Shown piece after piece: positions 4,345-19,433 of a DNA stretch of 64,000 bases. The position numbers and the translations under genes are program-made. The notes beneath the pieces are model-generated. The model did not search any database, was not told the origin of the DNA, and was given only the letters and a program-made list of their open reading frames with translations. The DNA lies in NCBI GenBank assembly GCA_965249865.1, contig CBDFMZ010000002.1:1483304-1547303 (forward strand). The letters run 5' to 3'. The DNA comes from Acidobacteriota bacterium (GTDB lineage: Bacteria; Acidobacteriota; UBA6911; RPQK01; CBDFMZ01). The number at the start of each line of letters is the position of its first letter. Position 1 is the stretch's first letter.

Positions 4345-5361
4345 TCACTCGAACTCGATGACTGCGCGACCAGAAACACTTCCGTCAGCAAGGAAAGCCA
4401 TGACCTCGTTGATTTGCTCCAGCCGATAGCGGTGAATCCTGGAGTCAATCACGCCGGCTGCTGCCAATTCGAAGAGCTCCCGAAGCTCTTGACGACTACA
4501 GACACGGGAAGGAACTACTCGGGTACCAGCCCGAACCAGATCGCCAGCTGATAGGACCAGAGGATGTGACGGCAGTCCCACCACCAAGAGAATTCCATTC
4601 TTCCGTAGACTTTGGAGAGCCCCCTGATAGGCTTCTACAGAATCTGCACACACCAGAGCGATCCCCACCTTGTTTTCGGCTTCTCCAAACCACTCTGTTG
4701 CCTGACTGGCTAAGACCGTGACGTCAGCACCCAACTCCTTCGCCAACTTCAGCTTACTTGGAACTAAATCGACCGCGGTAATTCGGGCTCCAGACCGTCT
4801 AGCTAGTTGGACTGCAAAATGCCCTAGTCCCCCCACCCCCCAAACAGCCAGGTGATCCGACTCTTTAAGATCGACCTTACTAAGGGCGCTGAAAACTGTT
4901 CCTCCAGCACAAAAGAGTGGGGCTGCCTCGCTTAAAGGAAACCCTTCGGGGATGGGGATGCTATGGCTCTCCCAGGCCAGCAGATATTCCGCAAACCCAC
5001 CATTGACAGTTGCACCTGTAATGGTGGGGACATCACAAAATACTTCCAAGTCCTGAAGACAGTACGTACACTGTCCACACGTATGATGAAACCATGACAC
5101 TCCGACCGGATCGCCTTCGCAAAAGCGGGTCACCGCTGGTCCGACTCCAGCCACCCTGCCCGCAACTTCATGCCCTAAAACAAGAGGCAGGGACATCAGA
5201 TTCTTAAAGCTTTCCCACTCCCCTAGAGCCAGATGCACATCGGTATGACAGACTCCGCAAGCAGCGACCTGAACTAGGATCTGACCCGGCCCGGGCACGG
5301 GCTTACTAACAACCTCAATCGCCAGAGGCTGTCCAAACTTCTTCAGGACAGCTGCCTTCAC
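4345..5361 (-). CDS. Zn-dependent alcohol dehydrogenase (MDR superfamily, AdhP-like)
   Basis: MKAAVLKKFGQPL...AACGVCHTDVH...GHEVAGRV...GVGGLGH carries the catalytic-Zn GHE motif, the structural Cys cluster and the GxGxxG NAD fold. Confidence 0.85.
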   Translation of the reverse strand: MKAAVLKKFGQPLAIEVVSKPVPGPGQILVQVAACGVCHTDVHLALGEWESFKNLMSLPLVLGHEVAGRVAGVGPAVTRFCEGDPVGVSWFHHTCGQCTYCLQDLEVFCDVPTITGATVNGGFAEYLLAWESHSIPIPEGFPLSEAAPLFCAGGTVFSALSKVDLKESDHLAVWGVGGLGHFAVQLARRSGARITAVDLVPSKLKLAKELGADVTVLASQATEWFGEAENKVGIALVCADSVEAYQGALQSLRKNGILLVVGLPSHPLVLSAGDLVRAGTRVVPSRVCSRQELRELFELAAAGVIDSRIHRYRLEQINEVMAFLADGSVSGRAVIEFE

Positions 5362-5801
5362 TCTGTAGTCACTCCAGTACTCTTTCTACTACCAACTATC
5401 CCTATCAGTCCCCAAGTCTGAGGGGTAACCAATTCCACGCTATTACCTGAAGGATCACGAAAATAAATCGAATATCCTCCGCCGGGCCAAGAAATCTCTT
5501 TCTCAATGACCACTTCTTGCTTGATCAGATGTTGGCGCCACCTAACTACTTCGCTTTCCTGGATGCTAAAGGCCACATGTCCAGCCCCGTTTGCCCCGTG
5601 AGGTGGAACATCACCATTTGGCTTCAGACTCTCTCCTGGGTTGAAGAGTAAAAAAATGGCCTTCCCGCAGCGGAAGAAAACGTGTCGATCTCCACCTCGT
5701 GAAAAAGCTGACAAACCCAGAACTCTACTATAAAACCTTTCCGCAGTACTCAGGTCGTCTGCGTACAGACAGGTTTCCACTACCCCTCTTACCTGTATCA
5801 C
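5358..5801 (-). CDS. VOC/glyoxalase-bleomycin-resistance family protein
   Basis: A 147-aa protein with VOC-fold features (HVAFSIQE...YFRDPSGNSVEL). Its stop overlaps the ADH start by 4 bp (ATGA), which indicates operon coupling. Confidence 0.6.
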   Translation of the reverse strand: MIQVRGVVETCLYADDLSTAERFYSRVLGLSAFSRGGDRHVFFRCGKAIFLLFNPGESLKPNGDVPPHGANGAGHVAFSIQESEVVRWRQHLIKQEVVIEKEISWPGGGYSIYFRDPSGNSVELVTPQTWGLIGIVGSRKSTGVTTE

Positions 5802-5827: not shown

Positions 5828-6313
5828 TCATCTACCCTTTCCTAAAGAAGTTTCTCTCAACTCGAATTCTCGCTGACAACACCAGCAAGGACCGGGAGCA
5901 TCAGTCGTGATATTGCACAGGTCACAACGGTAATAGAGGTCATAGACTTCGCCATCACGAACTGAGTAAACGTCGATTATTTCCAACTGATTTTCAGAGC
6001 GCTTCCACGCCTTGACCTGCAGCTCTCGTTCCCGGATCCGTGGGTCAGTGAAGATTTTTGTCTTTGGATCCTCCGGCAAAAACAAGTAAAGCTTTCCATC
6101 CACGGTATTCATGCCAAACAAAGGTAGCACCGTCAGATCATCTTTGAGTTCTGCCGGGTAAGCGTTCTCCGACTGGTCTAGGGTCACGATCGAACCTCGG
6201 ATATTCACCTCTTTAGACCGACGGTTGTCTTTAGCCTGGAGGTTGGGCGACAGAATTATCGACAGCATGAAACCAATACATACAACCAGTTGATCCCAGT
6301 GAATTCGTCCCAC
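5828..6313 (-). CDS. Secreted hypothetical protein with a C-terminal Cys cluster (CxxC...CWCC)
   Basis: It has an N-terminal signal peptide (MGRIHWDQLVVCIGFMLSIILSPNLQA) and a C-terminal YYRCDLCNITTDAPGPCWCCQ. No family was recognised. Confidence 0.4.
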   Translation of the reverse strand: MGRIHWDQLVVCIGFMLSIILSPNLQAKDNRRSKEVNIRGSIVTLDQSENAYPAELKDDLTVLPLFGMNTVDGKLYLFLPEDPKTKIFTDPRIRERELQVKAWKRSENQLEIIDVYSVRDGEVYDLYYRCDLCNITTDAPGPCWCCQREFELRETSLGKGR

Positions 6314-6730: not shown

Positions 6731-8428
6731 ATGAATATCCTGGGCGTAAACTTTTTTCACGCAAATGCCTCGGCAGCGGTTTTCGTCGATGGACAGCTGG
6801 TTGCGGCAGCCGAAGAAGAACGTTTTAACCGGGTGAAATTTTCGGCAGGTATCCCACTGGCAGCCATTGGTTTCTGCCTGAAGCAGGCAGGGCTTCAATT
6901 CAAGGACATCGACGTGATCACTTACGCGCGTTCAACAAACACTCGTGTTGTGAATAAGGACCAGATCCACTTCCAGGATCGTATTTACAAAATCAACTCA
7001 CTGTACGATCGTTACCGGATCAATTTCAAGATCATCAATTTCAAAGAAACGCTGGCTGAATACTTTGGAGTGCCAGTGGAGACGCTAGTTTTCAAGCTTC
7101 GTGAGGAGGACCATCATCTATCTCACCTGTTGTCTGGATTTTTTTACTCTCCCTTCGACAAGGCACTGTTGCTATCCTGCGATGCCTTCGGAGATTTCGT
7201 ATCGTTGAAAACCGGGGTTGGACAGGCTCTCCGGGTTGAGACTGTGCACGAGGTCCATTTTCCTCATTCAGTGGGGCTATTTTACACCACGGCTACACAA
7301 TTTCTAGGGTTTCCAGGCTACGGAGACGAAAGCAAAGTCATGGGACTTTCAACTTTTGGGGATCCCGAATACACCAATCGCCTTCGTACTATCATTTCCT
7401 TCGAAAACGGCTCACCGAGACTTAACCTCAAATACTTTGATCCAGAGAGCGGAGTAGGAACCTCTTGGTCAGAACAAACTCCGGATATCGGCCAGCTATT
7501 CGATCACAACCTCACGCGTCTGATGGGTGCTCAGAGACAGCCAGAGGAAGCGATTACGAACCGTCATCAAAACATTGCTGCCTCCTTACAACATCTGACC
7601 GAGGAAATTCTCTTCTCGATCATCGAGGACCTTTACGTCCAACATCCGATCCCTCGCTTGGTCTTCACCGGAGGGATTGCCTACAATTCCCTGCTCAATG
7701 GACGTATTTTTTCCAAAACTCCAATCGAGGAAGTTTTCATACCACCGGCACCCGGAAACAGCGGGTTGTGTGTGGGTTCGGCCCTGGCTTTTCTGGGAGA
7801 TTCGGCGCCACGTTGTGAAATGAAACAGGCCCTCTGGGGATCCGAATATTCCTCGGACGAGATAGCCCAACGCTTAAAAGACATGGGAGTGCACTTCGAA
7901 AGGCTCTCTGACCCGGTGTCAAAGGCTATACAGTTTCTCGATGACGGTCACACCATCGCTTGGTTTCAAGGCCGAATGGAGTTCGGACCGAGGAGCCTGG
8001 GGAGTCGCTCTATCTTAATCAGTCCGAAGACCCCTGATCCTCACAAGATCAAGAAACGAGATTTCTTAAAACCCTTTGGAATCTCTATCTTGGAAGACAG
8101 TGTAGGAGCTTATTTTCACGATGGTCATCGGTCCCCTTTCATGTCTTTCATGGGTAGAATTCGGGGTAAGTACAAACACGAGTTTGAGAACGTCCTGCTC
8201 AACAATTACTGTCGCTATCAGACTGTGGGGCCTGAGAATCTGCTTTTGTACGAGCTGTTGACCCGTTTTCGGGAAAAGACGGGCCTCCCTTTTTTGATCA
8301 ACACCTCACTCAATCCGGAGGGTGAACCCATTATCGAATCGCCCGAGCAACTAATTCAGCATTTCACCCGCATGCACCTGGACGCCGCTATCATCGGTGA
8401 TTTCCTGGTCTCTGCTCCCAACATTTAG
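6731..8428 (+). CDS. Carbamoyltransferase, NodU/CmcH family
   Basis: The N-terminus MNILGVNFFHANASAAVFVDGQLVAAAEEERFNRVKF is the canonical Kae1/YgjD-like opening of NodU/CmcH/TobZ carbamoyltransferases. The 565-aa length is typical. Confidence 0.8.
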   Translation: MNILGVNFFHANASAAVFVDGQLVAAAEEERFNRVKFSAGIPLAAIGFCLKQAGLQFKDIDVITYARSTNTRVVNKDQIHFQDRIYKINSLYDRYRINFKIINFKETLAEYFGVPVETLVFKLREEDHHLSHLLSGFFYSPFDKALLLSCDAFGDFVSLKTGVGQALRVETVHEVHFPHSVGLFYTTATQFLGFPGYGDESKVMGLSTFGDPEYTNRLRTIISFENGSPRLNLKYFDPESGVGTSWSEQTPDIGQLFDHNLTRLMGAQRQPEEAITNRHQNIAASLQHLTEEILFSIIEDLYVQHPIPRLVFTGGIAYNSLLNGRIFSKTPIEEVFIPPAPGNSGLCVGSALAFLGDSAPRCEMKQALWGSEYSSDEIAQRLKDMGVHFERLSDPVSKAIQFLDDGHTIAWFQGRMEFGPRSLGSRSILISPKTPDPHKIKKRDFLKPFGISILEDSVGAYFHDGHRSPFMSFMGRIRGKYKHEFENVLLNNYCRYQTVGPENLLLYELLTRFREKTGLPFLINTSLNPEGEPIIESPEQLIQHFTRMHLDAAIIGDFLVSAPNI

Positions 8429-8499
8429 AAGTCGTGGCCAACCCTAAGACTCAAAACCTCAAATCGGGAACCTGTCCGTGCTATACTCTGCCGGTGCGC

Positions 8500-9195
8500 A
8501 TGGTTCTTTTCGACATCGACGGCACCTTGTTGCTATCCGGTGGTGTGGGGAGCCGGGCTCTCGGATTTGCTTTAAAAGATATTTTCGGTCTGACAGACGG
8601 TCTCGGCAACACCCGACCAGATGGGAAGACCGATCCCCAAATTGTGCGTGAGGTACTAGCCTACTCCGGTCAAGTCCAGGAGAACAGCGATCATCTGGAG
8701 ACTTTTTTTTCTAGCTATCTTTCTTATCTCCGCCGCGAACTTAGCGCTGCAAAAAATTTCCGAGTACTTCCCGGAGTTCGTGAATTACTGGCACGTTTAA
8801 CCCCTCAGGCTGGGTTTTTATTGGGACTGGCTACGGGAAATATTGAAGATGGGGCACGAATGAAGCTGGAGCGGGCAAGATTGAGCTCCCTCTTTACATT
8901 TGGTGCCTTTGGTTCAGACGCTGAAGATCGCACCGAGTTGATTAAAATTGCCATCGAGCGAGGGACAGAGATAATCAGACCCGCGACACCGAAAGATGTT
9001 ATTGTCATTGGTGATACTCCTAGAGATATTGTCCACGGTAAGGATGCCGGGGCAAAAACCGTCGCAGTGGCTACGGGTTCCTATTCCCTAGAACGTTTAC
9101 TTTTACATAACCCCGATCTCGCCATCTCCAGTTTTGAACCGATCGAACCCGTGTTCTCCTTTTTAGCGGAAGGTTTGAGGAGTGCTAAAATCTGA
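8500..9195 (+). CDS. HAD-superfamily hydrolase (phosphatase)
   Basis: From the internal ATG at 8500 the product reads MVLFDIDGTLL, the HAD motif I DxDGT. A later GDTPRDI matches motif IV. The ORF-track start at 8434 is probably too far upstream. Confidence 0.75.
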   Translation: MVLFDIDGTLLLSGGVGSRALGFALKDIFGLTDGLGNTRPDGKTDPQIVREVLAYSGQVQENSDHLETFFSSYLSYLRRELSAAKNFRVLPGVRELLARLTPQAGFLLGLATGNIEDGARMKLERARLSSLFTFGAFGSDAEDRTELIKIAIERGTEIIRPATPKDVIVIGDTPRDIVHGKDAGAKTVAVATGSYSLERLLLHNPDLAISSFEPIEPVFSFLAEGLRSAKI

Positions 9196-11310
9196 ATCCT
9201 GAGAGCGACTTCGTTCATTTTTTTTTCTCGCCACCGGCCAAGTCAGCTCCCTGACCGTTTTCACGTGCTTCATCAACTCCACCCTGTCGAGGAAATAGCT
9301 TGATTTGAACTGGCTTTTGCTAAAAAGCTGGCGGGACTGATCATCCCAGTGGGGTGAATCCGAATGATCGCTCTGACCCAGCGGGACTACGGTGAAGGAA
9401 TAGGGCGGACGGGCCAGGATAACTACCTGTGTGAAAGCCTGGCCGCCATATCCCAGGAAGGTATGATCTGGTCTTTCCTCAAAACCAATTGCCCGAGGAG
9501 TGGCCATGCCGGAGGCAAGAAGTGATCCTCCACCTACTGGATAGTGCTCATCGGCTCCTTTCCGACCCAAACGGAACACACGACCATAATTCACTTCCAA
9601 GCTTCCGAAGTGGCTGTGTAAGCGATCTCGTCCATCTCCGAGGGCCTTGAGTAACTGTTCCGAAGTGAGTGTACCCTTAGTAACTTGACCGGCGTCCACC
9701 ACACGAGCCAGGGTTGCTCCCAAACTATCCTTCCAGTACTTGTACGCGATGGCTCCCAGAGAATCCGTGTCCATACGCCGGTTCCACCCGATTATCCGCT
9801 CATAAAACGTTGTCAGGTCACTTTCTGGAGGTGCACCCACGTTCTCGAGAAGGGCCTGCCACGATTCGGCCTGGTACACTCTAGAACTCACAGCAATTTC
9901 TAGAGCTTGATCGACACTGATTTGGTCGTCATCGTGAAGGAGTTGCAGAACCATCGCTGCCCGCTGATGTAGGTCATCATCTCCATTGTAAAGATATGGT
10001 CTTTCCCGCACTGTATCACGAACCAGCGGACTGGATTTCATGATCAGAGCAGGTGAGATATTACAGTTCTGCATATATTCCTGCGCGGGATTGGTGATTT
10101 GAATCAGATCGGAAAGCGGGTGGATTCCCTGCCACTCGCTGGCTGAAGTGTTTCCGGGAACAGGTCGGCTAAAATCGAATCCTTTGGGGCGAATCGGGAC
10201 TCGTCCGTTCCGGAGGTAATAAATATCTCCATGCACGGTGCCCACCATAACGTTTTGGGCCATCAACTGTAGCATACCCAGGGCCTTTTTGATCTGGTCC
10301 AATGTCCGTGCGGTCACCATCCTGTAAATCTGATCCGTAAGCTTCACTTCGTTGGCATAAGGTACAGCCATGGCGTAAGCCTTATCCCCTTTTCGTGCCA
10401 GCACGGGTCCATGATGCGTGGACTCTATTTCGACTTCCAGCCAGCGAACTCCATCCCCTTCCTTCATTCCAATCTTCTCTGTCCTGACCGTGATCTCTCG
10501 CCATGCCCCATCATACCTGTATTGACGTGAATTCGATGGATTGATTTCCTCCTCGTAAATGTCCGAAGTGTCCGGACCACCTGTGGTCATGGCGATGGAG
10601 ACGTAGCGACTGTGTCCCAGGGCTGGAAACGGGATTCCCACCACAGTCACCCCGGAAAACTGTATCTCTCCTCCATAGAGCCGGCACTCGTAAAAACGAA
10701 AGTGATCATACCAACTCAGATGAGGATCAATCAGCGCAATTGGCGCTCCTATCGTGGTCCGCTGAGGTGCAACTAACCATTCATTAGACCCTAAGTAAGG
10801 TCTGGACGTCAGCTCAATGCCTCCGCGGCGCAGGTCTGCAGACACCTCACCAAAAGGCCAGCTCCAGATCACAAAGCGTGCAAGTGCCACCACTTGCCAG
10901 GGATGCAGCTTCGGGGCCCAGTCGGGAACTTGGTCGGGATACTCACGCATAAAAAATCTGACACCTTCCTGAAAGGCTTCGATGACAACCCGAGTCCTGG
11001 CACTGAGTTCGCGATAACCCCGCTGGCTGACCTCGGCATGCCGAAAAACTCGCTGCATATAGTCGCTCCGAAAATTCTCTTGCCCTCCTAGTGCTTCCGC
11101 CAGGGTCCCCTCGGCTTTTCGATAATTTCTCAGGAGTTGTTCCAGGCGATCCTCTGCTTGAGCATAACCTGTGCCAAAAGCAACCCCTTGGTCGGTTTCC
11201 GCGAAAATATGAGGAACACCGTATTGATCCCGATAAATAGTGACCCGCTCGGCCCAAAGGAAAGACGACAACAGAAACAAAACGACCAGAGGGAGGATCC
11301 TCGTAACCAT
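9163..11310 (-). CDS. Penicillin amidase/acylase-family Ntn hydrolase (secreted; possibly an N-acyl-homoserine-lactone or similar acylase)
   Basis: The product carries a signal peptide (MVTRILPLVVLFLLSSFLWA|ERV). The alpha-subunit region reads YGVPHIFAETDQGVAFGTGYAQAEDRLEQL, and the beta-subunit N-terminal nucleophile context reads GSNEWLVAPQRT...LIDPHL. The start was moved to an internal Met at 11310, because the 775-aa track ORF overlaps the divergent gene. Confidence 0.8.
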   Translation of the reverse strand: MVTRILPLVVLFLLSSFLWAERVTIYRDQYGVPHIFAETDQGVAFGTGYAQAEDRLEQLLRNYRKAEGTLAEALGGQENFRSDYMQRVFRHAEVSQRGYRELSARTRVVIEAFQEGVRFFMREYPDQVPDWAPKLHPWQVVALARFVIWSWPFGEVSADLRRGGIELTSRPYLGSNEWLVAPQRTTIGAPIALIDPHLSWYDHFRFYECRLYGGEIQFSGVTVVGIPFPALGHSRYVSIAMTTGGPDTSDIYEEEINPSNSRQYRYDGAWREITVRTEKIGMKEGDGVRWLEVEIESTHHGPVLARKGDKAYAMAVPYANEVKLTDQIYRMVTARTLDQIKKALGMLQLMAQNVMVGTVHGDIYYLRNGRVPIRPKGFDFSRPVPGNTSASEWQGIHPLSDLIQITNPAQEYMQNCNISPALIMKSSPLVRDTVRERPYLYNGDDDLHQRAAMVLQLLHDDDQISVDQALEIAVSSRVYQAESWQALLENVGAPPESDLTTFYERIIGWNRRMDTDSLGAIAYKYWKDSLGATLARVVDAGQVTKGTLTSEQLLKALGDGRDRLHSHFGSLEVNYGRVFRLGRKGADEHYPVGGGSLLASGMATPRAIGFEERPDHTFLGYGGQAFTQVVILARPPYSFTVVPLGQSDHSDSPHWDDQSRQLFSKSQFKSSYFLDRVELMKHVKTVRELTWPVARKKNERSRSQDSDFSTPQTFR

Positions 11311-11474
11311 CAAGCTTAAGAAGATAAATCGATTCAAGCTGCTTGTGATCATAACACGGCTACTAAAGAAAAAAAGCGCCAGTTTTCCAAATTGATACCG
11401 GTTAAGAAGACTGCGAATAGACACTGACCAACATTGAATACCTTCGCAAAAATCACGTACAATGACCTTTATCA

Positions 11475-12479
11475 ATGCAGGCAAGATCACTTTCCTTCAA
11501 CCTCGAGCCCACGTTTCGTTGCAATCTCGAATGCCCGATGTGTCCCCGTTTTTCGAGCGAAGATCCCCATTTGGACATGTCGATGGAAACATATGCTCGT
11601 ATTCATGAAGCGATGATATCTGCCCACACGGTCGACTTTACGGGGTGGGGCGAACCAATGCTACATGGAAGAATTTTTGAAATGATTCAGATGGCGAAGG
11701 ATCAAGGTTCGACCACTACCATGACTACCAACGGTACCACTTTGAATGAGAAAAACAGCAAGAAGCTCATTGGTACCGGTTTGGATCGACTGGCGGTTTC
11801 GATTGATGGGATGACTCCTGCCACTTACAATTCGATCCGGATTGGTGCAACTTTTGAAAAAGTGACTAGAAACCTTAAGGACCTCTCCCGGTTGGTGAAG
11901 CAGGCAGAAAGTCCCCTGGAATTTTCAGTCGCCTTCACTCTCCAGGAAAATAACGCCCGGGATCTCGAACTTATAGTTCCCTGGATGAGGTCAGTCGATG
12001 CCAGGGTACTACATTTAAAGCACCTCAATGTCATCTCAAACGGCGAGGATTGGAAAAACAGCTTTTTGAAATATCTCCATCCACCTGTTCCGGAAAACGG
12101 AAGTACTCTAGGAAAACTGGAGGAGAATATCGCTGGTCTGGCAAATGCCTGTAAGAGCGCCGAAATCCGTTTGAATATGTATTCAGAATTTCCAATGACC
12201 CCTGAAATAAAGGGACGCCATTGTCTAGCGACCCCTCTCAATGCGGTCTATTTTTCCTATGAAGGACTAGTCTCGCCATGTTGTCACTTTGGGCATCATG
12301 TCAGTCGTTACTTCGAAGGAACGTTCTACCCTCCATCGTCACTCTTTTATGGGGACATTCGTCTGCAAACCTTCAAGGAAGTGTGGAACGATCCTGAATT
12401 TAAAGCCTTTCGGAAGGGTTTTATCACCAAAGAATTTCCACAGGCCTGCCGTACCTGTTATCTTCTTTACGGTAAGTAA
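11475..12479 (+). CDS. Radical SAM enzyme with a C-terminal SPASM/twitch-like Cys-rich domain
   Basis: CNLECPMC is the CX3CX2C motif of radical SAM enzymes. GWGEPML matches the glycine-rich SAM-binding motif (GGEP-type). The C-terminus has additional Cys (CCHFGHH...CRTCY) consistent with an auxiliary Fe-S domain. Confidence 0.7.
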   Translation: MQARSLSFNLEPTFRCNLECPMCPRFSSEDPHLDMSMETYARIHEAMISAHTVDFTGWGEPMLHGRIFEMIQMAKDQGSTTTMTTNGTTLNEKNSKKLIGTGLDRLAVSIDGMTPATYNSIRIGATFEKVTRNLKDLSRLVKQAESPLEFSVAFTLQENNARDLELIVPWMRSVDARVLHLKHLNVISNGEDWKNSFLKYLHPPVPENGSTLGKLEENIAGLANACKSAEIRLNMYSEFPMTPEIKGRHCLATPLNAVYFSYEGLVSPCCHFGHHVSRYFEGTFYPPSSLFYGDIRLQTFKEVWNDPEFKAFRKGFITKEFPQACRTCYLLYGK

Positions 12480-12497
12480 ACTCCAATCCAGGACGTT

Positions 12498-12863
12498 TTA
12501 GAACCAGACGGAAGCGTTGTTTGAATCTTTACTCTTACCCACTTCGTTAAAGGCGAAGACTTTGTAAACAAACACACCGGTGATGTATTTACCAATCTTG
12601 TCCCTGTAACGACTGGTGTTTGTTCCTACCATTCCAATCACTCGGAATTCTCCCCCATTATCAGAACGAATTATCTCGAAACCCACTTCATTGTCAGACT
12701 GGTCCTGCCAGGCTAAAGTAGCAACGGCAGTGCCGCCTTCAAAACTGCTGGAAACCTTTAAGTTAATCGGTTTCTTTGGCGCCCGTTGGGCCTCTTGAGG
12801 TTCAGCCCCAGCAACCCCTGCTGTCCAGGCTGTAAAGAATATCCCTAGGATGAATCGTTTCAT
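12498..12863 (-). CDS. Small secreted protein with an FN3-like beta-sandwich domain
   Basis: A signal peptide (MKRFILGIFFTAWTAGVAGA) is followed by EVGFEIIRSDNGGEFRVIG...NTSRY...YKVFAFNEVGKS, an FN3-like pattern. It converges on the rSAM gene. Confidence 0.4.
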   Translation of the reverse strand: MKRFILGIFFTAWTAGVAGAEPQEAQRAPKKPINLKVSSSFEGGTAVATLAWQDQSDNEVGFEIIRSDNGGEFRVIGMVGTNTSRYRDKIGKYITGVFVYKVFAFNEVGKSKDSNNASVWF

Positions 12864-12982
12864 TTGGTGTCTCCCCTATTTAGGTTGCCCTAAATCCCCT
12901 CCCAAAACCAACTTGTTATAAGATGGTTGGATTTTGCACTTGTTGCATAAAATCAATCCATCTGCTCTTGCGGAGACAGTTT

Positions 12983-14665
12983 ATGTTTCGATCCATTGCC
13001 TGCACCGGAGCTTTACTTCTTTTTTTAGCTTGCGTGGCTGAAAAACAATACGACTTAGTGCTGCGCAACGGCCTTATATATGACGGCAGCGGATTGCCTC
13101 CATTCGTTGGGGATATCGCTGTTAACGGTGACAAGATCCAAGCGGTCAGATCCTTGCTGGATACGCGAGCCAAAACGGAAATTGATATCTCCGGCCTAGC
13201 CGTTGCTCCCGGTTTCATCAACATGCTTAGCTGGGCCACCGCCTCGTTAATTGAAGATGGTCAATCTCAAAGCGATATTCGTCAAGGGGTAACCCTTGAG
13301 GTCTTCGGTGAGGGGTGGTCCATGGGTCCTCTGAACGAATCCATGAAGAAGGAGATGTGCGAGCGGCAGGGGGATATTCAATACGAGATCCATTGGACAA
13401 CCCTAGGAGAGTACTTAGAGCATCTAGTGAGACGAGGAGTCTCACCCAATATTGCTTCCTTTGTAGGAGCCACCACGGTGAGAGTCTATGTTCTAGGCTA
13501 CGAGAACCGTGCTCCAAACGCCGAAGAGCTTGAAAAGATGCAAGGCTTGGTACGGCAAGCAATGGAGGAAGGCGCACTTGGTCTTGGTTCGTCACTAATT
13601 TACGCGCCGGCTTTCTACGCTAAAACCGATGAACTGATCGCGCTGGCAGAAGCAGCGGCCGAATATGATGGCCGGTACATTTCACACCTACGAAGTGAAG
13701 GAAATAGTGTTTTGGAAGCGGTTGACGAGCTACTCAGCATCGCACGAATCGCCAAAATACCGGCCGAAATATATCATTTGAAGGCGGCAGGGCAAATAAA
13801 TTGGCACAAACTGGACAGCGTCATCAAAAAGGTGGAAGCAGCACGTGCTGAGGGTCTTCGCATCACGGCCAACATGTACTGCTACACAGCCGCAGCGACC
13901 GGTCTCGATGCCGCTATGCCTCCCCAGGTTCAGGAAGGAGGACTGCAAGCGTGGATTAAACGACTCAAAGATCCCTCCGTCCGACGCCGGGTCAAGCTAG
14001 AAATGTCCACGCCGACCAACCAGTGGGAAAACATGTACTTGGCAGCAGGCTCACCCGAACGAGTCATCCTGATCGGATTCAAGAGCAAATCGCTAAAAAG
14101 CCTTACGGGAAAGACACTGGCCGAAGTTGCTGCCGAGCGTGGAAAATCCCCGGAAGAGACTGCTATGGACCTCGTCATCGAAGATGAAAGTCAGGTGGAC
14201 ACCATTTATTTCGTCATGTCCGAGGAAAACGTACGCAAAAAGATCGCCCTCTCCTGGATGAGCTTTAGCTCGGACTGGGCTTCGATGGGTGCCGAAGGAG
14301 TCTTTCTGAACTCGATTCCTCACCCGCGGGCCTACGGCAATTTCGCACGACTCCTTGGAAAATATGTACGTGAGGAAAAAGTGGTTCGACTCGAAGAAGC
14401 GGTGCGGCGTCTGACTTCTTTTCCTGCCTCCAACCTCAACATCGACCGCCGAGGATCTCTCGTTCCTGGCTATTTCGCCGACATGGTGGTTTTCGATCCA
14501 GCTAATATCCAAGATCTTGCCACCTATGCGAGTCCCCATCAGTACGCGAGCGGAGTTGTGCACGTCTTCGTTAATGGGGTACAAGTGCTTAAAGACGGAG
14601 AGCACACAGGAGCAAAGCCTGGTCGCGTCGTTCGGGGCCCGGGCTGGAAGGGGCCCGAACGGTGA
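12983..14665 (+). CDS. N-acyl-D-amino-acid deacylase (D-aminoacylase) family amidohydrolase, probable lipoprotein
   Basis: After a lipobox-like signal (LLLFLAC) the product reads YDLVLRNGLIYDGSG...GFINMLSWATASLIEDGQSQSDIRQGVTLEVFGEG, as in D-aminoacylases. The start was moved to the ATG at 12983. Confidence 0.75.
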   Translation: MFRSIACTGALLLFLACVAEKQYDLVLRNGLIYDGSGLPPFVGDIAVNGDKIQAVRSLLDTRAKTEIDISGLAVAPGFINMLSWATASLIEDGQSQSDIRQGVTLEVFGEGWSMGPLNESMKKEMCERQGDIQYEIHWTTLGEYLEHLVRRGVSPNIASFVGATTVRVYVLGYENRAPNAEELEKMQGLVRQAMEEGALGLGSSLIYAPAFYAKTDELIALAEAAAEYDGRYISHLRSEGNSVLEAVDELLSIARIAKIPAEIYHLKAAGQINWHKLDSVIKKVEAARAEGLRITANMYCYTAAATGLDAAMPPQVQEGGLQAWIKRLKDPSVRRRVKLEMSTPTNQWENMYLAAGSPERVILIGFKSKSLKSLTGKTLAEVAAERGKSPEETAMDLVIEDESQVDTIYFVMSEENVRKKIALSWMSFSSDWASMGAEGVFLNSIPHPRAYGNFARLLGKYVREEKVVRLEEAVRRLTSFPASNLNIDRRGSLVPGYFADMVVFDPANIQDLATYASPHQYASGVVHVFVNGVQVLKDGEHTGAKPGRVVRGPGWKGPER

Positions 14666-14701
14666 ATATCTCAGGTTCCCGGCTGATCAGAAAACCAGAA
14701 A

Positions 14702-15520
14702 TCAGCCACCAATTGCTGAGATCTGTTCCTTCAAGAGGGAGGACTCATGGACATAATTTTGGATTTTTCCCAGAGATTCAGCTAATCGGACGACCTCGCC
14801 GATGACGAGAAGCGCTGGAGATCGGATGCCAGCTTGGGTCGATTTGGCAACGATGGTCTGAAGTGTTGCGCTCACGTACCGTTGTGTTTCTAAAGTACCT
14901 GCATGAATTAAAACCGCCGGTGTGCCTAGTGCCCGTCCATGAAGGATCAGCTGAGAGATAATATGCCGGAGGTTTTGCAGTGGCATTAAGACCACCAGGG
15001 TGTCGCTAGCCCGGGCGATTACGTCCCAGCGCACTGGTTCATCGCAGCCCGTTGGCTGGTATCCGGTCACAATAGTAACTGATGAAGCCAGGTTGCGGTA
15101 GGTCACCGGGATACCTACAGAGGCAGGAACAGCCAACGCCGAACTCACACCGGGAACCACTTCATAGGGAATCTTTTTTTGAGCCAGGTAGAGGGCCTCT
15201 TCACCTCCGCGCCCAAACACAAATGGATCACCCCCTTTTAGCCGAACCACCTGTTTACCCTCCCTAGCACGAGCCACCAGCATCTCATTGATTTTACCCT
15301 GTGGAAAGCTGTGACGACCCCCTTTTTTTCTCACCGAGACACGCTCTGCTCCGGCGGGTGCCAAAGCGAGAACACGCCGGTCAACCAACCGATCGTAAAC
15401 AATGACATCTGCCCGTTGGAGATATCGTAACCCTTTCACGGTCAGCAGCTCCGGGTCCCCCGGACCCGCTCCCACCAGGTAAACTTTACCAACCTTAGAA
15501 AATAATACTCTCACCTTCAT
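14702..15520 (-). CDS. cobA: Uroporphyrinogen-III C-methyltransferase (SUMT)
   Basis: VYLVGAGPGDPELLTVKG...GGDPFVFGRGGEE...GVSSA are the classic SUMT/tetrapyrrole methylase motifs. Confidence 0.85.
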   Translation of the reverse strand: MKVRVLFSKVGKVYLVGAGPGDPELLTVKGLRYLQRADVIVYDRLVDRRVLALAPAGAERVSVRKKGGRHSFPQGKINEMLVARAREGKQVVRLKGGDPFVFGRGGEEALYLAQKKIPYEVVPGVSSALAVPASVGIPVTYRNLASSVTIVTGYQPTGCDEPVRWDVIARASDTLVVLMPLQNLRHIISQLILHGRALGTPAVLIHAGTLETQRYVSATLQTIVAKSTQAGIRSPALLVIGEVVRLAESLGKIQNYVHESSLLKEQISAIGG

Positions 15521-16089
15521 TCCTCCCCTATCGCCTTTTTCAATTGTACGCGTACCGCTTCCACTCCCCCATCACGAGCAGCTTCCAGGAGATCTATTTC
15601 CAGCAAATGGTGATAAAAACCTTTCCGTTCCTCGAAAGATCGGAAACGCTGCTTCACCAACGACCGGATTTCTCCCAAGGCATTCAGGAGATCGGCGTAT
15701 TCGGGTCCAAACTGCTGCTCTAACTCGCCTCGGATTCTTGAAGCCAAAGCCGGGCTCTTCCCGGAAGTTGATACGGCAATGAGAAGGTCACCCTGCTCGA
15801 GGATAGCAGGGGCGATGAAATGACAGTTCTCGATCTGGTCCACCACGTTTAGTAAGATCTGATTTTGATCGGCAAACTTTCGAATTTTGCGCCCTTCTTC
15901 GTCATTATCCACCACGGCGACCATCAGAAACACCTCAGATGCCTCGGCTGGATTGAAGATCGTACTGCGACGAACCTGGGCACCTGCTCGCTGCAGGACA
16001 AATGCCTTTTCCTCGGCTAACTTGCCCTGTCCGACGACTAGACAAGGTTGACTCCGAATGTCGAGAAAGACTGGGTAGTATCTCACCAC
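15517..16089 (-). CDS. sirC: Precorrin-2 dehydrogenase / sirohydrochlorin ferrochelatase (siroheme synthase N-terminal-domain type)
   Basis: YPVFLDIRSQPCLVVGQGKLAEEKAFVLQRAGAQV matches the CysG N-terminal / Met8 / SirC Rossmann opening. The 190-aa product overlaps cobA by 4 bp. Confidence 0.75.
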   Translation of the reverse strand: MVRYYPVFLDIRSQPCLVVGQGKLAEEKAFVLQRAGAQVRRSTIFNPAEASEVFLMVAVVDNDEEGRKIRKFADQNQILLNVVDQIENCHFIAPAILEQGDLLIAVSTSGKSPALASRIRGELEQQFGPEYADLLNALGEIRSLVKQRFRSFEERKGFYHHLLEIDLLEAARDGGVEAVRVQLKKAIGEE

Positions 16090-16404
16090 GCCCTGTTAAG
16101 GTATCCACCAGGGTAGAATTTTCGATAGCAGCCTGCGGTAAAAGTCGCGTCGGGTCGCGCCCCAATGATCTGTGGTCGTTGGCCAGACGCGAGGAAGAAT
16201 CGATGCCTTCGCAACCGCGAGGATGACCGACACAGTCCAACGGCTACAAACCCCCAGAGGCTCTTCGAGGGGCGGCATGAACCCGTCTGCAATGTGGTAC
16301 CTCCTCGAAGATGGCACGGCATCAACTCACCGTCACATCCCAAATCAGAAATAATTTCGCCAGTAACCGATGGCTTGTTCTTCATTGGACAGGACACTGT
16401 GTCG

Positions 16405-17073
16405 TTAGGCGTGTAATCCACATTCCTTAAAACACTCCTGTTCCCACCACCAACGACCGGCTCGCAAATCCTCACTCGGGCGGACCGCTCGGGTACACGG
16501 AGCACAACCAATACTGCGATAATTCAAGTCATGCAGTTTATTATAGGGAACCTTGTGTTCTTGGATATATTTCCATACCTCCTGCTCGGACCAGTCCGCC
16601 AGAGGATTAATCTTCACGCGCCCGCTTGCCTCCCGTTCTAGTTTAGGGACCTTGGCTCGGTTTGCCGACTGCTCACGACGCAGGCCGGTGATCCACGCGT
16701 CCAGCCCGACAAGAGCACGTTCCAACGGCTCAACCTTCCGTATCTGGCAACAGAGTTTCCTGAACTCTACACTCTTATAAAACAGGTTGATACCGTGACC
16801 GCACACCATCTCCTCCACCTTTCGAGAATTGGGAAAATAGACTTCCATAGAAAACGGATAACGTTGTTCCACTTCTTCCATGAGCTGATAAGTTTCCTGC
16901 GGAAGCCGACCAGTATCCAGGGTAAGAATACGGGTCTTGCTACTGATTTTACTCAGCAGATCAATCAAAACCATATCTTCTGCACCAAAGCTGGAGGCCA
17001 AAGCGACCCGATCCTCGTACTTTTTAACTGCCCAGCGAAGTAAATCTTCTGCGTTTACGTTTTCCTTACTCAT
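16405..17073 (-). CDS. cysH: Adenylyl-sulfate (APS) reductase, thioredoxin-dependent, Fe-S type (CysH family)
   Basis: The PAPS-reductase fold is present (SFGAEDMVLIDL, ECGLH at the C-terminus). CC (KLCCQIRK) and CxxC (GCAPCT) pairs characterise the [4Fe-4S]-containing APS-reductase subclass. Confidence 0.85.
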   Translation of the reverse strand: MSKENVNAEDLLRWAVKKYEDRVALASSFGAEDMVLIDLLSKISSKTRILTLDTGRLPQETYQLMEEVEQRYPFSMEVYFPNSRKVEEMVCGHGINLFYKSVEFRKLCCQIRKVEPLERALVGLDAWITGLRREQSANRAKVPKLEREASGRVKINPLADWSEQEVWKYIQEHKVPYNKLHDLNYRSIGCAPCTRAVRPSEDLRAGRWWWEQECFKECGLHA

Positions 17074-17448
17074 CCCTTCCTTACTCCTCCAATCCCGATA
17101 AATTGTATCGACTTAATAGACAATGCTTACTATACTGCTCAAAGACTTAGTATTCAAGTCAGTTTTTCACTTTTTTTGGGATGAGTACGTCTGGAAGCAG
17201 TCGCGCTACTCAACATCATAGTCTCAGCACTGTCCCTGTGGATACCCCCCCTTGACTCGTCAAACACTTCAAGGCGGCGGCACGACCATCACGGGTTTGC
17301 TCGGAAGCAGATATGCCGTTGGAGAACGTGCAGTAGCTGGTTGACCCATACGGATCCGCGCACTACTCATTTGTACGATCGCCGATAGCCAAGAGTCACG
17401 CGGAATATCGTGGAACAGATCTCCACTTAGTAGATCTCCCTAGACGTC

Positions 17449-18180
17449 ATGCTGTTATCCTTCAGGACCATGGGGGAAGGGGAGAGCTTTCTCAATCGTC
17501 TGGGGGAGATCTGTAGGACACTCAGCTCGGGTGACCTGTGCCGTAGAACCCGCATGTGCAGGTGGAAAATACAGGATCCAACAGAATCGATCTCTTCTTC
17601 CAGGACCTTTTTCCCAATGCTCCCTTTGATCCTGCCCTCTCCATCCCAGATTTTTTTCATTCAAGCTGCCACCACCTGTTTTCCTTCTGGAATCGAAAAG
17701 TCTTCCCGGCTCGGAAAGACGGTGGTCCAACAGGCAATCTGACCCGAAACACTTATGCTGGCCAGCCGTTACCTGGAGCGCGTGCAACGAGTCCCATGGT
17801 CGGATCGTATCTTGGATAAAAACCGTTCCGACTCGGGCAGTGACTGGTGGGTGGTCAGCAAGGCATTCACGGGAAAGGGCAACCCCATGCTCATCAACGA
17901 TCCCCACCTGGTCCTGTACACTCCCGCCAAGCTCTGCGAGATCCATCTGACTGTCTCGAAGGACTTGACCTATGAATTTTCTACCAGCAAGGAAACGTAT
18001 GGTTTGCCAGAACTCTCATCCTCAGCTTGGGATCCAGCAAAAGTCTACCTGCTAGGACAACACTGTCCATCCCATGGATGTGACGGATACTTTGTGCTGG
18101 ACAATACGAAAAGAAAAACAGGCTTGCATTATAACCCACTACCGATGGCATATTCTAATTCCGACTCCGCGATTTTATAA
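17449..18180 (+). pseudogene. Degraded penicillin-acylase-family paralogue (fragments in three + frames)
   Basis: The + frames contain ...ATSPMVGSYLG then SDWWVVSKAFTGKGNPMLINDPHLVLYTP. These parallel GSNEWLVAPQRT...LIDPHL of the intact acylase at 9163-11310. There is no continuous ORF, and the 3' end is overrun by the TolC-like gene. Confidence 0.45.
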
Positions 18181-19430
18181 TCGTAAAGGGCTTCCGCATA
18201 CTCACTTTCTGTAGTAGTTAAAATTGTCTGTGCTGCGACCAATTCTACAAAATCCGCCAACTCCATCTGATACCTTGCCCTGGCAAGACGTAGTGCTTCC
18301 TCTGCTTGGTTCATAATCTGTTCGCTCGTCGTGACTGACTCTATGGTGATGATCAGGTCGTTGTACGCTCTACTGACTTGCAGACGAATTTTCTGGATCA
18401 GCTCATCTCGGGCTGCTTCCGTTTTCCCGAGATTCTGCTTGGCTTCCTCAATACCAGCTTTGAGACGATGCCCCGTAAACAGAGGCAACTTAATTCCAAA
18501 ACCCCCAAACAACAACTTGCCCAATGTCAAGTCCGCGAAGCGCGTCCAACCTCCACTTAACAAACCCATCAATCTCGGATACCGTTCACTTTCAGCCCTT
18601 TCCAACCAGCTCCCGGTCGCCTTCATTCGTGCTTCAACAGCGCGCAGCTCGGGACGATGCTCAAGGCTCTTCGCCAACAAGTTTTCAAAGGATGGAGGTT
18701 TAGCCAGCTCGATATCAGGTTCTTCAAGAGCGTAGCCGTCCTGCGGAGCCTCCACACCGAGAGCATGGTCCAAAACAGCAAAGGATTGTTGCAGCGAATT
18801 GGAGGCTTTTACGAGACCAAGCTCGGCTCGAGATAGTTCTACTTCAGCGACACGAACGCCCAATTTAGATCTCAGTTGAGCCCGATAAAAGGCTTCAGCT
18901 TGCCTCAGGGTTAACTTTCTGTTCTTCACAGTTCCCTGAGCAACCTCAATCAACTCCTGAGCCTGGAGCGTCCTGAAATAGGCTTTTTTTACCTCTAGGA
19001 CAAGTTCGGCCTGTTCAGCCAGAATACTCTCCTTAAAGTAGACCAGTTCAGAGCGCCGGGCTGCACTTTGATGGGTAGTACGACCAAAGTCCAACAGATC
19101 CTGATAAACATTGGTTGAGATAGCCATGTCGTCAGGAAGTGGCGAAGATGCTAAGCCGCGAAGCGCAAAAGCATTTCCTGAACCTGACAAACCCTGCTTG
19201 ACAATCCCTCCAACATCCACTTGTGGAAAGCGATTTGAGCGGGCTTGCTTAATACGAGCCTCTGCTGCTGCTATCTCTAATTGAGCTGTGCGCAACCGTG
19301 GATGATGAACAAGAGCTGTTTTAATGGCCTCGTCCAGACTCAAAAACCGTCCCTTTTCAGGAGCTTGATCTGCTGTGGTGGCCACACCACTAAACAATGC
19401 TGCGACCAAGACGGCTAACTTCAATTGCAT
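18129..19430 (-). CDS. Outer-membrane efflux protein (TolC-like OMF)
   Basis: Signal peptide plus the two-repeat OEP architecture (PRLRTAQLEIAAAEARIKQARSNRFPQVDVGG). The 433-aa product is last in the RND operon. Confidence 0.8.
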   Translation of the reverse strand: MQLKLAVLVAALFSGVATTADQAPEKGRFLSLDEAIKTALVHHPRLRTAQLEIAAAEARIKQARSNRFPQVDVGGIVKQGLSGSGNAFALRGLASSPLPDDMAISTNVYQDLLDFGRTTHQSAARRSELVYFKESILAEQAELVLEVKKAYFRTLQAQELIEVAQGTVKNRKLTLRQAEAFYRAQLRSKLGVRVAEVELSRAELGLVKASNSLQQSFAVLDHALGVEAPQDGYALEEPDIELAKPPSFENLLAKSLEHRPELRAVEARMKATGSWLERAESERYPRLMGLLSGGWTRFADLTLGKLLFGGFGIKLPLFTGHRLKAGIEEAKQNLGKTEAARDELIQKIRLQVSRAYNDLIITIESVTTSEQIMNQAEEALRLARARYQMELADFVELVAAQTILTTTESEYAEALYDYKIAESELEYAIGSGL

Positions 19431-19433
19431 GAT

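Follow-up and report, generated by a model that had tools for sequence, protein, structure and literature searches.

Six neighbouring genes lie within about 8 kb of a 64-kb stretch of DNA (the window) from an uncultured Acidobacteriota bacterium. The original prediction described them as a tight cluster of tailoring and hydrolytic enzymes (a carbamoyltransferase, a HAD phosphatase, a penicillin-acylase-family hydrolase, a radical-SAM/SPASM protein, an FN3 protein and a D-aminoacylase) and suggested a dedicated pathway for an exported N-acylated compound. All six open reading frames (ORFs) were found where it had placed them. Pfam and NCBIfam scans assigned the proteins to the named superfamilies, except for the FN3-like protein (called small121 here), which had no Pfam match above threshold. 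Altogether, comparison with related loci suggests that the stretch is probably a genus-specific retention of an ancestral, slowly decaying Acidobacteriota gene neighbourhood, with four transcription units rather than one pathway. The genes and the two intergenic features concerned are:

6731–8428, plus strand: NodU/CmcH-family O-carbamoyltransferase, predicted cytoplasmic (Carbam_trans_N E = 2e-45, Carbam_trans_C E = 9e-43)
8434–9195, plus strand: HAD-superfamily (type IA) phosphatase (HAD_2 E = 6e-15, also Pfam Hydrolase; motifs DIDGT and GDTPRD)
9163–11310, minus strand: penicillin-acylase-family N-terminal nucleophile (Ntn) hydrolase, predicted periplasmic (Penicil_amidase E = 8e-120, 402 bits)
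11311–11474, no strand: divergent spacer between the acylase and radical-SAM genes, 164 bp if the acylase starts at Met 11310
11475–12479, plus strand: radical-SAM enzyme of 334 aa with a Twitch-like abbreviated SPASM domain (Radical_SAM E = 3e-16, SPASM E = 2e-10)
12498–12863, minus strand: small121, a single-domain FN3-like protein of 121 aa whose N-terminus resembles a signal peptide; it is the hub around which the neighbourhood is conserved
12920–12947, minus strand: promoter-like motif TGCAAC-N17-ATCTT upstream of small121, within the 119 bp that separate this gene from the divergent amidohydrolase gene
12923 or 12983–14665, plus strand: lipoprotein-like amidohydrolase (Amidohydro_3; best solved relative D-aminoacylase 1M7J, E = 2e-71)

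The genes run in the strand order + + − + − +, and therefore at least four transcription units must be present; the carbamoyltransferase and HAD genes form the sole possible operon among the six. Consensus scans for sigma-70 promoters and terminators gave counts modestly above shuffled controls and revealed no site favouring co-transcription or shared regulation, and an Rfam scan of window positions 1–26 kb detected neither a riboswitch nor an RNA family. In NCBIfam, none of the six proteins reached a named equivalog (nodulation NodU, NF041651, 99.5 bits against a cut-off of 1000; PvdQ, NF051460, 94.7 against 950; W-cofactor radical-SAM maturase, 157 against 380; PRK09061, 211 against 340). 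A run of six enzyme genes is unremarkable in a bacterial chromosome.

About 130 related loci were compared, all of them from one phylum and the metagenome contigs being short. The complete six-gene arrangement was found only in contigs of 86–100% identity. Three of these, L001 (99–100%) and L002 and L003 (86%), share the same order from the HpcH aldolase gene to the PAPS reductase gene, so that the arrangement is stable within a probable single genus. The 164-bp divergent region between the acylase and radical-SAM genes, which the original prediction had singled out, was recovered given the acylase start at Met 11310. This juxtaposition is confined to the window's genus, with a spacer of about 365 bp in L002, and is missing in all other radical-SAM loci.

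Linkage outside the genus was followed from several anchors. An alignment of radical-SAM orthologues was scanned against one genome per GTDB species, yielding 76 loci in which the window proteins were then searched by tblastn. Radical-SAM homologues that bear a name are all from Acidobacteriota/Acidobacteria. Among the 53 orthologous loci outside the window's genus (47–68% identity), small121 was present in 27, siroheme synthase genes in 14–15, and the HAD gene, the amidohydrolase gene (one case weak) and the glyoxalase/hyp161 genes, which lie upstream of the six in the window, in 3 each; the carbamoyltransferase and the acylase were found in none of them. A count restricted to the 29 loci whose flanks reach 3 kb or more on each side gave 15 with small121 and none with any of the other four genes. 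Roughly half of the species-level loci thus have small121 next to the radical-SAM gene. A small121-anchored metagenome scan gave 45 loci, and counts were made after dereplication over those with enough flank: the radical-SAM gene lay downstream in 10/25, the HAD gene was present in 8/25, the amidohydrolase gene lay upstream in 5/23 and the carbamoyltransferase gene occurred in 3, while the acylase was seen in 0 of the 45. The loss of linkage in related genomes had been named beforehand as an outcome that would speak against a common pathway. The result was divided: tight pairs persist, and the acylase was absent from the loci of both scans (0/53 and 0/45) and the carbamoyltransferase from those of the radical-SAM scan (0/53).

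Three pairs proved tight, namely small121 with the radical-SAM gene, carbamoyltransferase with HAD, and amidohydrolase with small121. In 34 of the 37 dereplicated loci containing both genes, a small121 orthologue (46–70% identity) immediately precedes the radical-SAM gene and is co-directional with it; the median gap is 106 nt (range 4–389 nt), and co-directionality is lacking only in the window's genus and L102. The adjacency extends over most of the radical-SAM tree while both flanks change, from LptFG and an LpxL-like acyltransferase to siroheme synthase and AP_endonuc_2 or to ProC, and the trees of the two proteins show similar clades. As no other pairing outlasts a change of both flanks, small121 and the radical-SAM gene are probably a selected, functional gene pair. 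The association is not universal: whole radical-SAM clades have no small121 nearby, and in one small121 clade the radical-SAM gene is not nearby. The HAD gene adjoins the carbamoyltransferase gene, 3' of it, in every carbamoyltransferase locus recovered, and the amidohydrolase adjoins small121 in every amidohydrolase locus seen. The acylase adjoins HAD in the three closest lineages and is linked there only. Four loci outside the genus illustrate the partial arrangements; neither the radical-SAM nor the acylase gene is found in the last two:

L086 (acylase 66% identity): acylase, HAD, carbamoyltransferase, hyp161, glyoxalase
L087 (acylase 61% identity): hemerythrin, small121, further genes, AP_endonuc_2, acylase, HAD
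L090 (carbamoyltransferase 72% identity): carbamoyltransferase, HAD, HAD, one other gene, small121 (minus), amidohydrolase (plus)
L092 (carbamoyltransferase 65% identity): hyp161 (minus), carbamoyltransferase, one other gene, HAD, small121 (minus), amidohydrolase (plus)

These partial arrangements are collinear with a single order: amidohydrolase, (hemerythrin), small121, radical SAM, (AP_endonuc_2), acylase, HAD, carbamoyltransferase, hyp161, glyoxalase. The window retains this reconstructed ancestral order except for its radical-SAM gene, which here, as elsewhere in the genus, is inverted with respect to small121, its usual partner. Genes for siroheme synthase, ProC, VWA, ThiC, LptFG and LpxL-like proteins occur in the same block, with frequencies comparable to the weaker links. 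Because housekeeping genes are kept nearby about as often as the more weakly linked members of the six, much of the linkage is attributable to inherited order; with every genome compared coming, in addition, from a single phylum, inherited order suffices as an explanation of all but the three tight pairs. The gene set resembles the conserved gene neighbourhoods known as "uber-operons" in staying close through rearrangements within one clade, and differs from a biosynthetic gene cluster in that the block includes unrelated housekeeping genes and has no core scaffold enzyme. Of the dedicated pathway, accordingly, one element stood, as gene subsets do remain neighbours in other Acidobacteriota, with varying orders and orientations; the six occur together within one genus only, and share their block with housekeeping genes.

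The carbamoyltransferase belongs to the NodU/CmcH family as predicted, both domains scoring well above the gathering threshold (Carbam_trans_N 156 bits, cut-off 24; Carbam_trans_C 146 bits, cut-off 27), although the NodU equivalog itself was far out of reach. An HHLSH motif is located at residue 128, and the closest solved relatives, GdmN, NovN and TobZ, align end to end (E = 1e-57 to 1e-63). The window protein shares with these enzymes both full-length Pfam domains and the HHxxH motif, but its gene lies outside any antibiotic or Nod-factor cluster and belongs to a tight, Acidobacteriota-only group in which a HAD phosphatase is the constant partner; orthologues at 65–76% identity are restricted to Acidobacteriota, and identity then drops to 59, 52 and 41%. 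TobZ and NovN carbamoylate sugar hydroxyls. By analogy with TobZ, NovN and GdmN, the enzyme would convert carbamoyl phosphate and ATP to carbamoyl-adenylate and then O-carbamoylate a hydroxyl group. The HAD assignment was likewise borne out (HAD_2 56 bits, cut-off 23.8, with the catalytic DIDGT and GDTPRD motifs in place), and this phosphatase probably strips phosphate from the same sugar-phosphate-type metabolite that serves as the carbamoyltransferase substrate. The true HAD start is likely near 8500, where public gene calls of 231 aa begin, and the gap to the carbamoyltransferase gene amounts to 5–71 nt.

The acylase gene is its own transcription unit, convergent with HAD. The family assignment was confirmed at 402 bits, and since the solved beta chains start to align at Ser189 in LG|SNEW, the Ntn nucleophile is present; the enzyme would activate itself by cleavage at Gly188|Ser189. 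Its proposed kinship with acylases of N-acyl-homoserine lactones (AHL) or lipopeptides did not hold. The closest solved structures are class I cephalosporin/glutaryl-7-aminocephalosporanic acid (7-ACA) acylases (E = 2e-46, 162 bits), followed by penicillin G acylases (E = 7e-29) and PvdQ (E = 5e-19, 71 bits), and the PvdQ model of NCBIfam was missed by a wide margin. With the glutaryl-7-ACA acylases (1KEH, 4E57) and the PvdQ-type AHL acylases the window protein has in common the Ntn family, a predicted signal peptide and a Ser as residue 1 of the beta chain; it differs in scoring 162 and 71 bits only and in being one of more than 2000 environmental homologues. The family comprises 2076 proteins at E <= 1e-20, many of them at 52–58% identity and including members from Blastocatellia and Gemmataceae. 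The acylase thus appears to represent a very common soil-bacterial family that is a neighbour in the closest lineages only. Export of the acylase and of the amidohydrolase, as originally proposed, is supported by a signal-like N-terminal segment in the former and by a lipobox-like Cys in the latter, and is to be taken as predicted, the signal peptides having been judged by eye.

Some differences between near-identical contigs concern these two hydrolases. The acylase C-termini of the window (9163–9230, minus strand) and of L001 (7585–7644) differ by a frameshift, and the amidohydrolase of L002 (11451–13132) is split into two ORFs, the L003 copy being intact; such differences may reflect assembly errors or early pseudogenisation. 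Elsewhere in the window, a second penicillin-amidase gene is represented by a fragment, a 141-aa ORF (17755–18180, plus strand; Pfam E = 1.7e-8). In L002 (86% identical), a 1446-aa Penicil_amidase ORF occupies nearly the corresponding position with respect to the PAPS reductase gene and follows a Transposase_mut gene; the second copy in the window is probably a decayed remnant.

Small121 was the most difficult protein to classify. Its own Pfam matches are all below threshold and it contains no Cys. A profile built from 17 sequences matched FN3con in the PDB over the full length (E = 0.005) and titin FN3 domains at E = 0.2–0.3; Pfam fn3 was matched marginally by 2 of the 17 family members (E 0.019 or weaker). 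As the single-sequence AlphaFold2 (AF2) model was too poor for use (pLDDT 51), the assignment rests on the profile matches, and the FN3 label of the original prediction, which finds no Pfam match at threshold, is plausible though weakly supported by sequence. The conserved residues correspond to the FN3 core and include no obvious modification motif; weak matches were also obtained to FN3-like domains of glycosidases, GH85_C and CatAgl_D2.

Upstream of small121, at a distance of 35–95 nt, the motif TGCAAC-N16-18-(T)ATCTT was found in many of 60 loci inspected by eye. In the window it has 2 matches against 0.29 expected, the second inside a pseudogene, and in the fetched loci a related motif is almost confined to the region upstream of small121. 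Since it recurs there and not before the other genes, small121 has its own conserved promoter, and a regulatory motif shared by the six genes was rejected. In at least 8 lineages (L004, at 9133–9504, L011, L015, L017, L020, L087, L095, L119) small121 is immediately preceded by a gene with a hemerythrin domain, which the window lacks.

The radical-SAM enzyme carries the cluster motif CX3CX2C (C16, C20, C23), and both Radical_SAM and SPASM Pfam domains were detected, in line with the original label. The seven-Cys SPASM motif, which stands for two auxiliary clusters, is not present: five C-terminal Cys residues are invariant among the orthologues (C250, C269, C270, C325, C328; pattern C-X18-CC...C-X2-C), Pfam found no RRE domain in the 334-aa protein, and neither the annotated nor the recurring neighbours include a PqqD-like gene. 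Of the curated models, those for the W-cofactor oxidoreductase maturase and for rSAM_Geo_metal came closest, with scores at about 40% of their cut-offs. When an AF2 model (pLDDT 82) was compared by Foldseek, DesII and BlsE were the best matches (TM-score 0.66–0.71), with SkfB, SuiB and CteB at 0.58–0.66 and PqqE also behind. BlsE and DesII were also among the few PDB matches at sequence level. Both are sugar-modifying enzymes. Remote homologues from other phyla (25–33% identity) sit in nucleoside-diphosphate-sugar (NDP-sugar)/O-antigen operons together with genes for a nucleotidyltransferase, a 4,6-dehydratase, a DegT aminotransferase, Wzx, an RmlD-like reductase, GT4 and Wzt. With the Twitch/SPASM enzymes (BlsE, DesII and BtrN; SkfB, SuiB, CteB and PqqE) the window enzyme shares the CX3CX2C core and a C-terminal auxiliary-cluster domain; it differs from the SPASM peptide maturases by having five instead of seven Cys and no RRE, and its orthologue group has no characterised member. 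We consider it more likely that the enzyme acts on a sugar-like small molecule than on a peptide; with a Twitch-type single auxiliary cluster, it would abstract a hydrogen atom from such a substrate.

AhbD, NirJ and MoaA were considered as identities of this enzyme on account of the siroheme neighbour, the molybdenum-hydroxylase clusters of one clade and one homologue named Fe-coproporphyrin III synthase, and were rejected at 75, 63 and 61–70 bits against cut-offs of 500, 515 and 231–325, respectively. The clade in question (L007, L031, L032, L034, L035, L039, L040, at about 10000–19500) has orthologues of 57–60% identity and no small121 near. There the radical-SAM gene heads a co-directional run of a different HAD gene and genes for CoxS/L/M-type molybdenum hydroxylase subunits, AAA, VWA, MocA-like and XdhC maturation proteins, with a divergent acyl-CoA dehydrogenase gene upstream. 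The public call of the window gene is 298 aa long and starts at Met37, thereby losing the CX3CX2C motif (window 11475–11582); full-length homologues favour the 334-aa ORF. Literature searches on radical SAM/SPASM with FN3 and on TIGR04317/TIGR04311 returned nothing relevant.

The amidohydrolase had been called a D-aminoacylase. The fold family is indeed that of D-aminoacylase (1M7J), and two metal-binding His residues and the Asp in SF[GSAC]SD are retained among the orthologues, the phmmer alignment misplacing this Asp by a few residues. The Cys ligand and the HxH motif are missing. NMLSW, a segment without His, takes the place of xHxHx in the protein and its nine orthologues, and FGE-G that of GNCG in all nine. 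Subtype V amidohydrolases, the D-aminoacylases, are defined by Cys/His/His metal ligands; HxH is essential in OngB, a carbohydrate (sugar-acid) deacetylase of the same fold, and Glu/His/His is the site of the CE9 NagA type (PMC12017989). An exhaustive search for full-length D-aminoacylase-like proteins gave 113 family representatives, of which 62 have HxH and Cys, 9 HxH and Glu, 38 Glu without HxH (the window protein among them) and four neither ligand, three of these with HxH and one without. Glu is therefore present in 38 of the 39 representatives that lost HxH, and these proteins appear, by sequence, to form a separate, sizeable and uncharacterised branch of the fold. The NagA of E. coli is a functional enzyme with Glu/His/His and without HxH.

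Compared with D-aminoacylase (1M7J, 3GIP) and OngB (9KB1), the window amidohydrolase aligns over the full length including the beta domain and keeps the two His and the Asp; it differs by Glu in place of Cys, the missing HxH, the lipoprotein-like N-terminus and a longer insertion. Because a lipobox-like Cys ends the hydrophobic N-terminal segment in all orthologues, the protein is consistent with a lipoprotein. It would be a membrane-anchored periplasmic amidohydrolase that probably relies on a single metal with Glu/His/His ligands, the site of NagA-type deacetylases, to hydrolyse an N-acyl amine, not necessarily that of a D-amino acid.

The surroundings of the six genes were covered by a Pfam scan of the flanking ORFs and of every ORF of at least 200 aa in the rest of the window. 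The genes upstream are ordinary chromosomal ones (sodium:solute symporter, HpcH aldolase, PHP, zinc-dependent alcohol dehydrogenase, glyoxalase). Downstream follow a uroporphyrinogen-III methyltransferase gene, a gene with a siroheme synthase N-terminal domain, the APS/PAPS reductase gene and an RND efflux system, and the remaining genes encode ProC, lipoyl synthase, complex I, PSCyt/DUF1501 proteins and MacB, the transporters being of the RND and MacB types. No nonribosomal peptide synthetase (NRPS), no polyketide synthase and no recognisable machinery for ribosomally synthesised and post-translationally modified peptides or small precursor peptides was found in the 64 kb, the longest ORFs being at most 1064 aa; the NRPS or precursor peptide for which the original prediction had advised a search was accordingly not found in the window. 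An origin as an island acquired by horizontal transfer was also rejected: in the window the six genes have no mobile-element genes at their flanks, and synteny with relatives extends across the region. The GC content of the window is 0.46–0.53 in the first 30 kb and 0.54–0.58 in the remainder (complex I etc.). Three features next to the six genes recur in related loci:

5358–5801, minus strand: VOC/glyoxalase-family protein (Pfam Glyoxalase E = 3e-10), a recurrent outer member of the neighbourhood
5828–6313, minus strand: hyp161, a predicted secreted protein with a C-terminal CxxC...PGPCxCC zinc-ribbon-like motif
14702–16089, minus strand: uroporphyrinogen-III C-methyltransferase gene and siroheme synthase N-terminal domain gene (NCBIfam above cut-off)

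Fos-like NCBIfam matches of the glyoxalase-family protein were weak and far under the cut-off. Neither Pfam nor NCBIfam matched hyp161, whose C-terminus (YYRCDLCN...PGPCWCC) resembles a zinc-ribbon or heavy-metal-binding motif; its orthologues (39–62% identity) adjoin carbamoyltransferase or HAD in 10 dereplicated loci. Glyoxalase and hyp161 genes occur together beside HAD or carbamoyltransferase in L013, L017, L020, L086 and L095. No genes adjoin the small121/radical-SAM pair more often than the siroheme genes, which do so in 12–15 radical-SAM-anchored loci.

Several explanations other than retained gene order were weighed. According to the first proposal for this locus, all six genes process or recycle an exported N-acylated compound, possibly containing D-amino acids, which the acylase would deacylate, the D-aminoacylase cleave, the radical-SAM enzyme mature as a peptide and the carbamoyltransferase decorate. 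The correct family-level assignments, the apparent export signals of both hydrolases, the synteny of the six genes in two to three close relatives and an ancestral order that can be reconstructed with all six agree with it. We nevertheless consider it very improbable: the amidohydrolase has neither the Cys ligand nor the HxH that define D-aminoacylases and comes from a fold family that includes a sugar-acid deacetylase, the acylase is nearest to glutaryl/cephalosporin acylases and never accompanies small121, the radical-SAM or the amidohydrolase gene outside the closest lineages, the Cys pattern of the radical-SAM enzyme is Twitch-like with no RRE, and at least four transcription units stand in a 64-kb window in which neither an NRPS nor a small precursor peptide was found. 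The remote similarities are better accommodated if the substrate is an envelope glycan or amino sugar. Here the radical-SAM enzyme, HAD and carbamoyltransferase would modify a (nucleotide-)sugar in the cytoplasm, the lipoprotein amidohydrolase would de-N-acylate the exported glycan in the periplasm and small121 would bind it, the acylase being optional. BlsE and DesII, to which the radical-SAM enzyme is closest among solved proteins in both sequence and fold, the NDP-sugar/O-antigen operons of its remote homologues, TobZ and NovN among the nearest solved carbamoyltransferases, OngB within the D-aminoacylase fold and the Glu/His/His sites typical of CE9 NagA (PMC12017989), the weak matches of small121 to GH85_C and CatAgl_D2, and LpxL-like and LptFG genes as frequent neighbours all point in this direction. 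All of these similarities are remote, however, the Pfam scan found no glycosyltransferase, flippase or nucleotidyltransferase in the window's neighbourhood, the LpxL-like/LptFG adjacency may be inherited like that of ProC or ThiC, and the radical-SAM/small121 pair is separate from carbamoyltransferase-HAD and from the amidohydrolase in most genomes, so that we regard this explanation as unlikely.

Precedents for a different relationship within the tightest pair are anSME, which modifies sulfatases, and QhpD, which modifies QhpC before export. The radical-SAM enzyme could in the same way modify small121 in the cytoplasm before Sec export, the product then working together with the amidohydrolase lipoprotein. 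Such a function would be consistent with the co-directional pairing in 34/37 loci across most radical-SAM clades, with the similar clades in both trees, with a strong conserved promoter of small121 of the kind that precursor genes often have, and with the constant adjacency of the amidohydrolase to small121. It is made doubtful, and in our estimate quite unlikely, by the lack of Cys or an obvious modification motif in small121, whose conserved residues are those of the FN3 core, by a radical-SAM protein with neither an RRE domain nor a PqqD-like partner, by the clades in which either gene occurs without the other nearby, and by the convergent orientation in the window, where co-transcription of the pair is impossible. 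A broader possibility, to which we give a similarly low probability, is that small121, the radical-SAM enzyme and the Glu/His/His lipoprotein amidohydrolase constitute an undescribed envelope system of Acidobacteriota, in which small121 is either modified by the radical-SAM enzyme ahead of export or joins the other two in acting on a single envelope glycan; the hemerythrin that often precedes them may belong to it, and carbamoyltransferase-HAD would be a frequent accessory.

The reading we prefer, a retained and slowly decaying ancestral neighbourhood, would divide the stretch into four units. The carbamoyltransferase and HAD genes would form a cytoplasmic two-gene operon; exported small121, with its own conserved promoter, would go with the radical-SAM gene, which has the same direction in most relatives; the amidohydrolase gene would be a unit of its own, diverging from small121 across their shared 119-bp control region; and the periplasmic Ntn-hydrolase acylase would stand alone. 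Some points weigh against this reading. The partial arrangements follow a single ancestral order that holds all six genes, and adjacency maintained through inversions (radical SAM in the window's genus, HAD in L020) also fits selection on a loose functional neighbourhood. As all loci come from one phylum, inherited order and function are not cleanly separable, and distinct lineages with good flanks numbered only three for the acylase anchor and four for the carbamoyltransferase anchor. The leaning of the radical-SAM enzyme towards sugars, moreover, depends on remote similarity (14–18% identity to DesII/BlsE, 25–33% to the homologues in O-antigen clusters).

Three leads emerge from the locus: the persistent small121/radical-SAM pair in uncultured Acidobacteriota, the branch of the D-aminoacylase fold with Glu for Cys and no HxH, and the clade-specific carbamoyltransferase-HAD operon. 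None of the three bears on any long-standing open question. The main value of the finding is one of caution. D-aminoacylase and SPASM peptide maturase turned out to be names whose defining family features the proteins do not show, and in this poorly studied phylum a set of tailoring-sounding names resembled a pathway where the genomic context reveals mostly inherited gene order.

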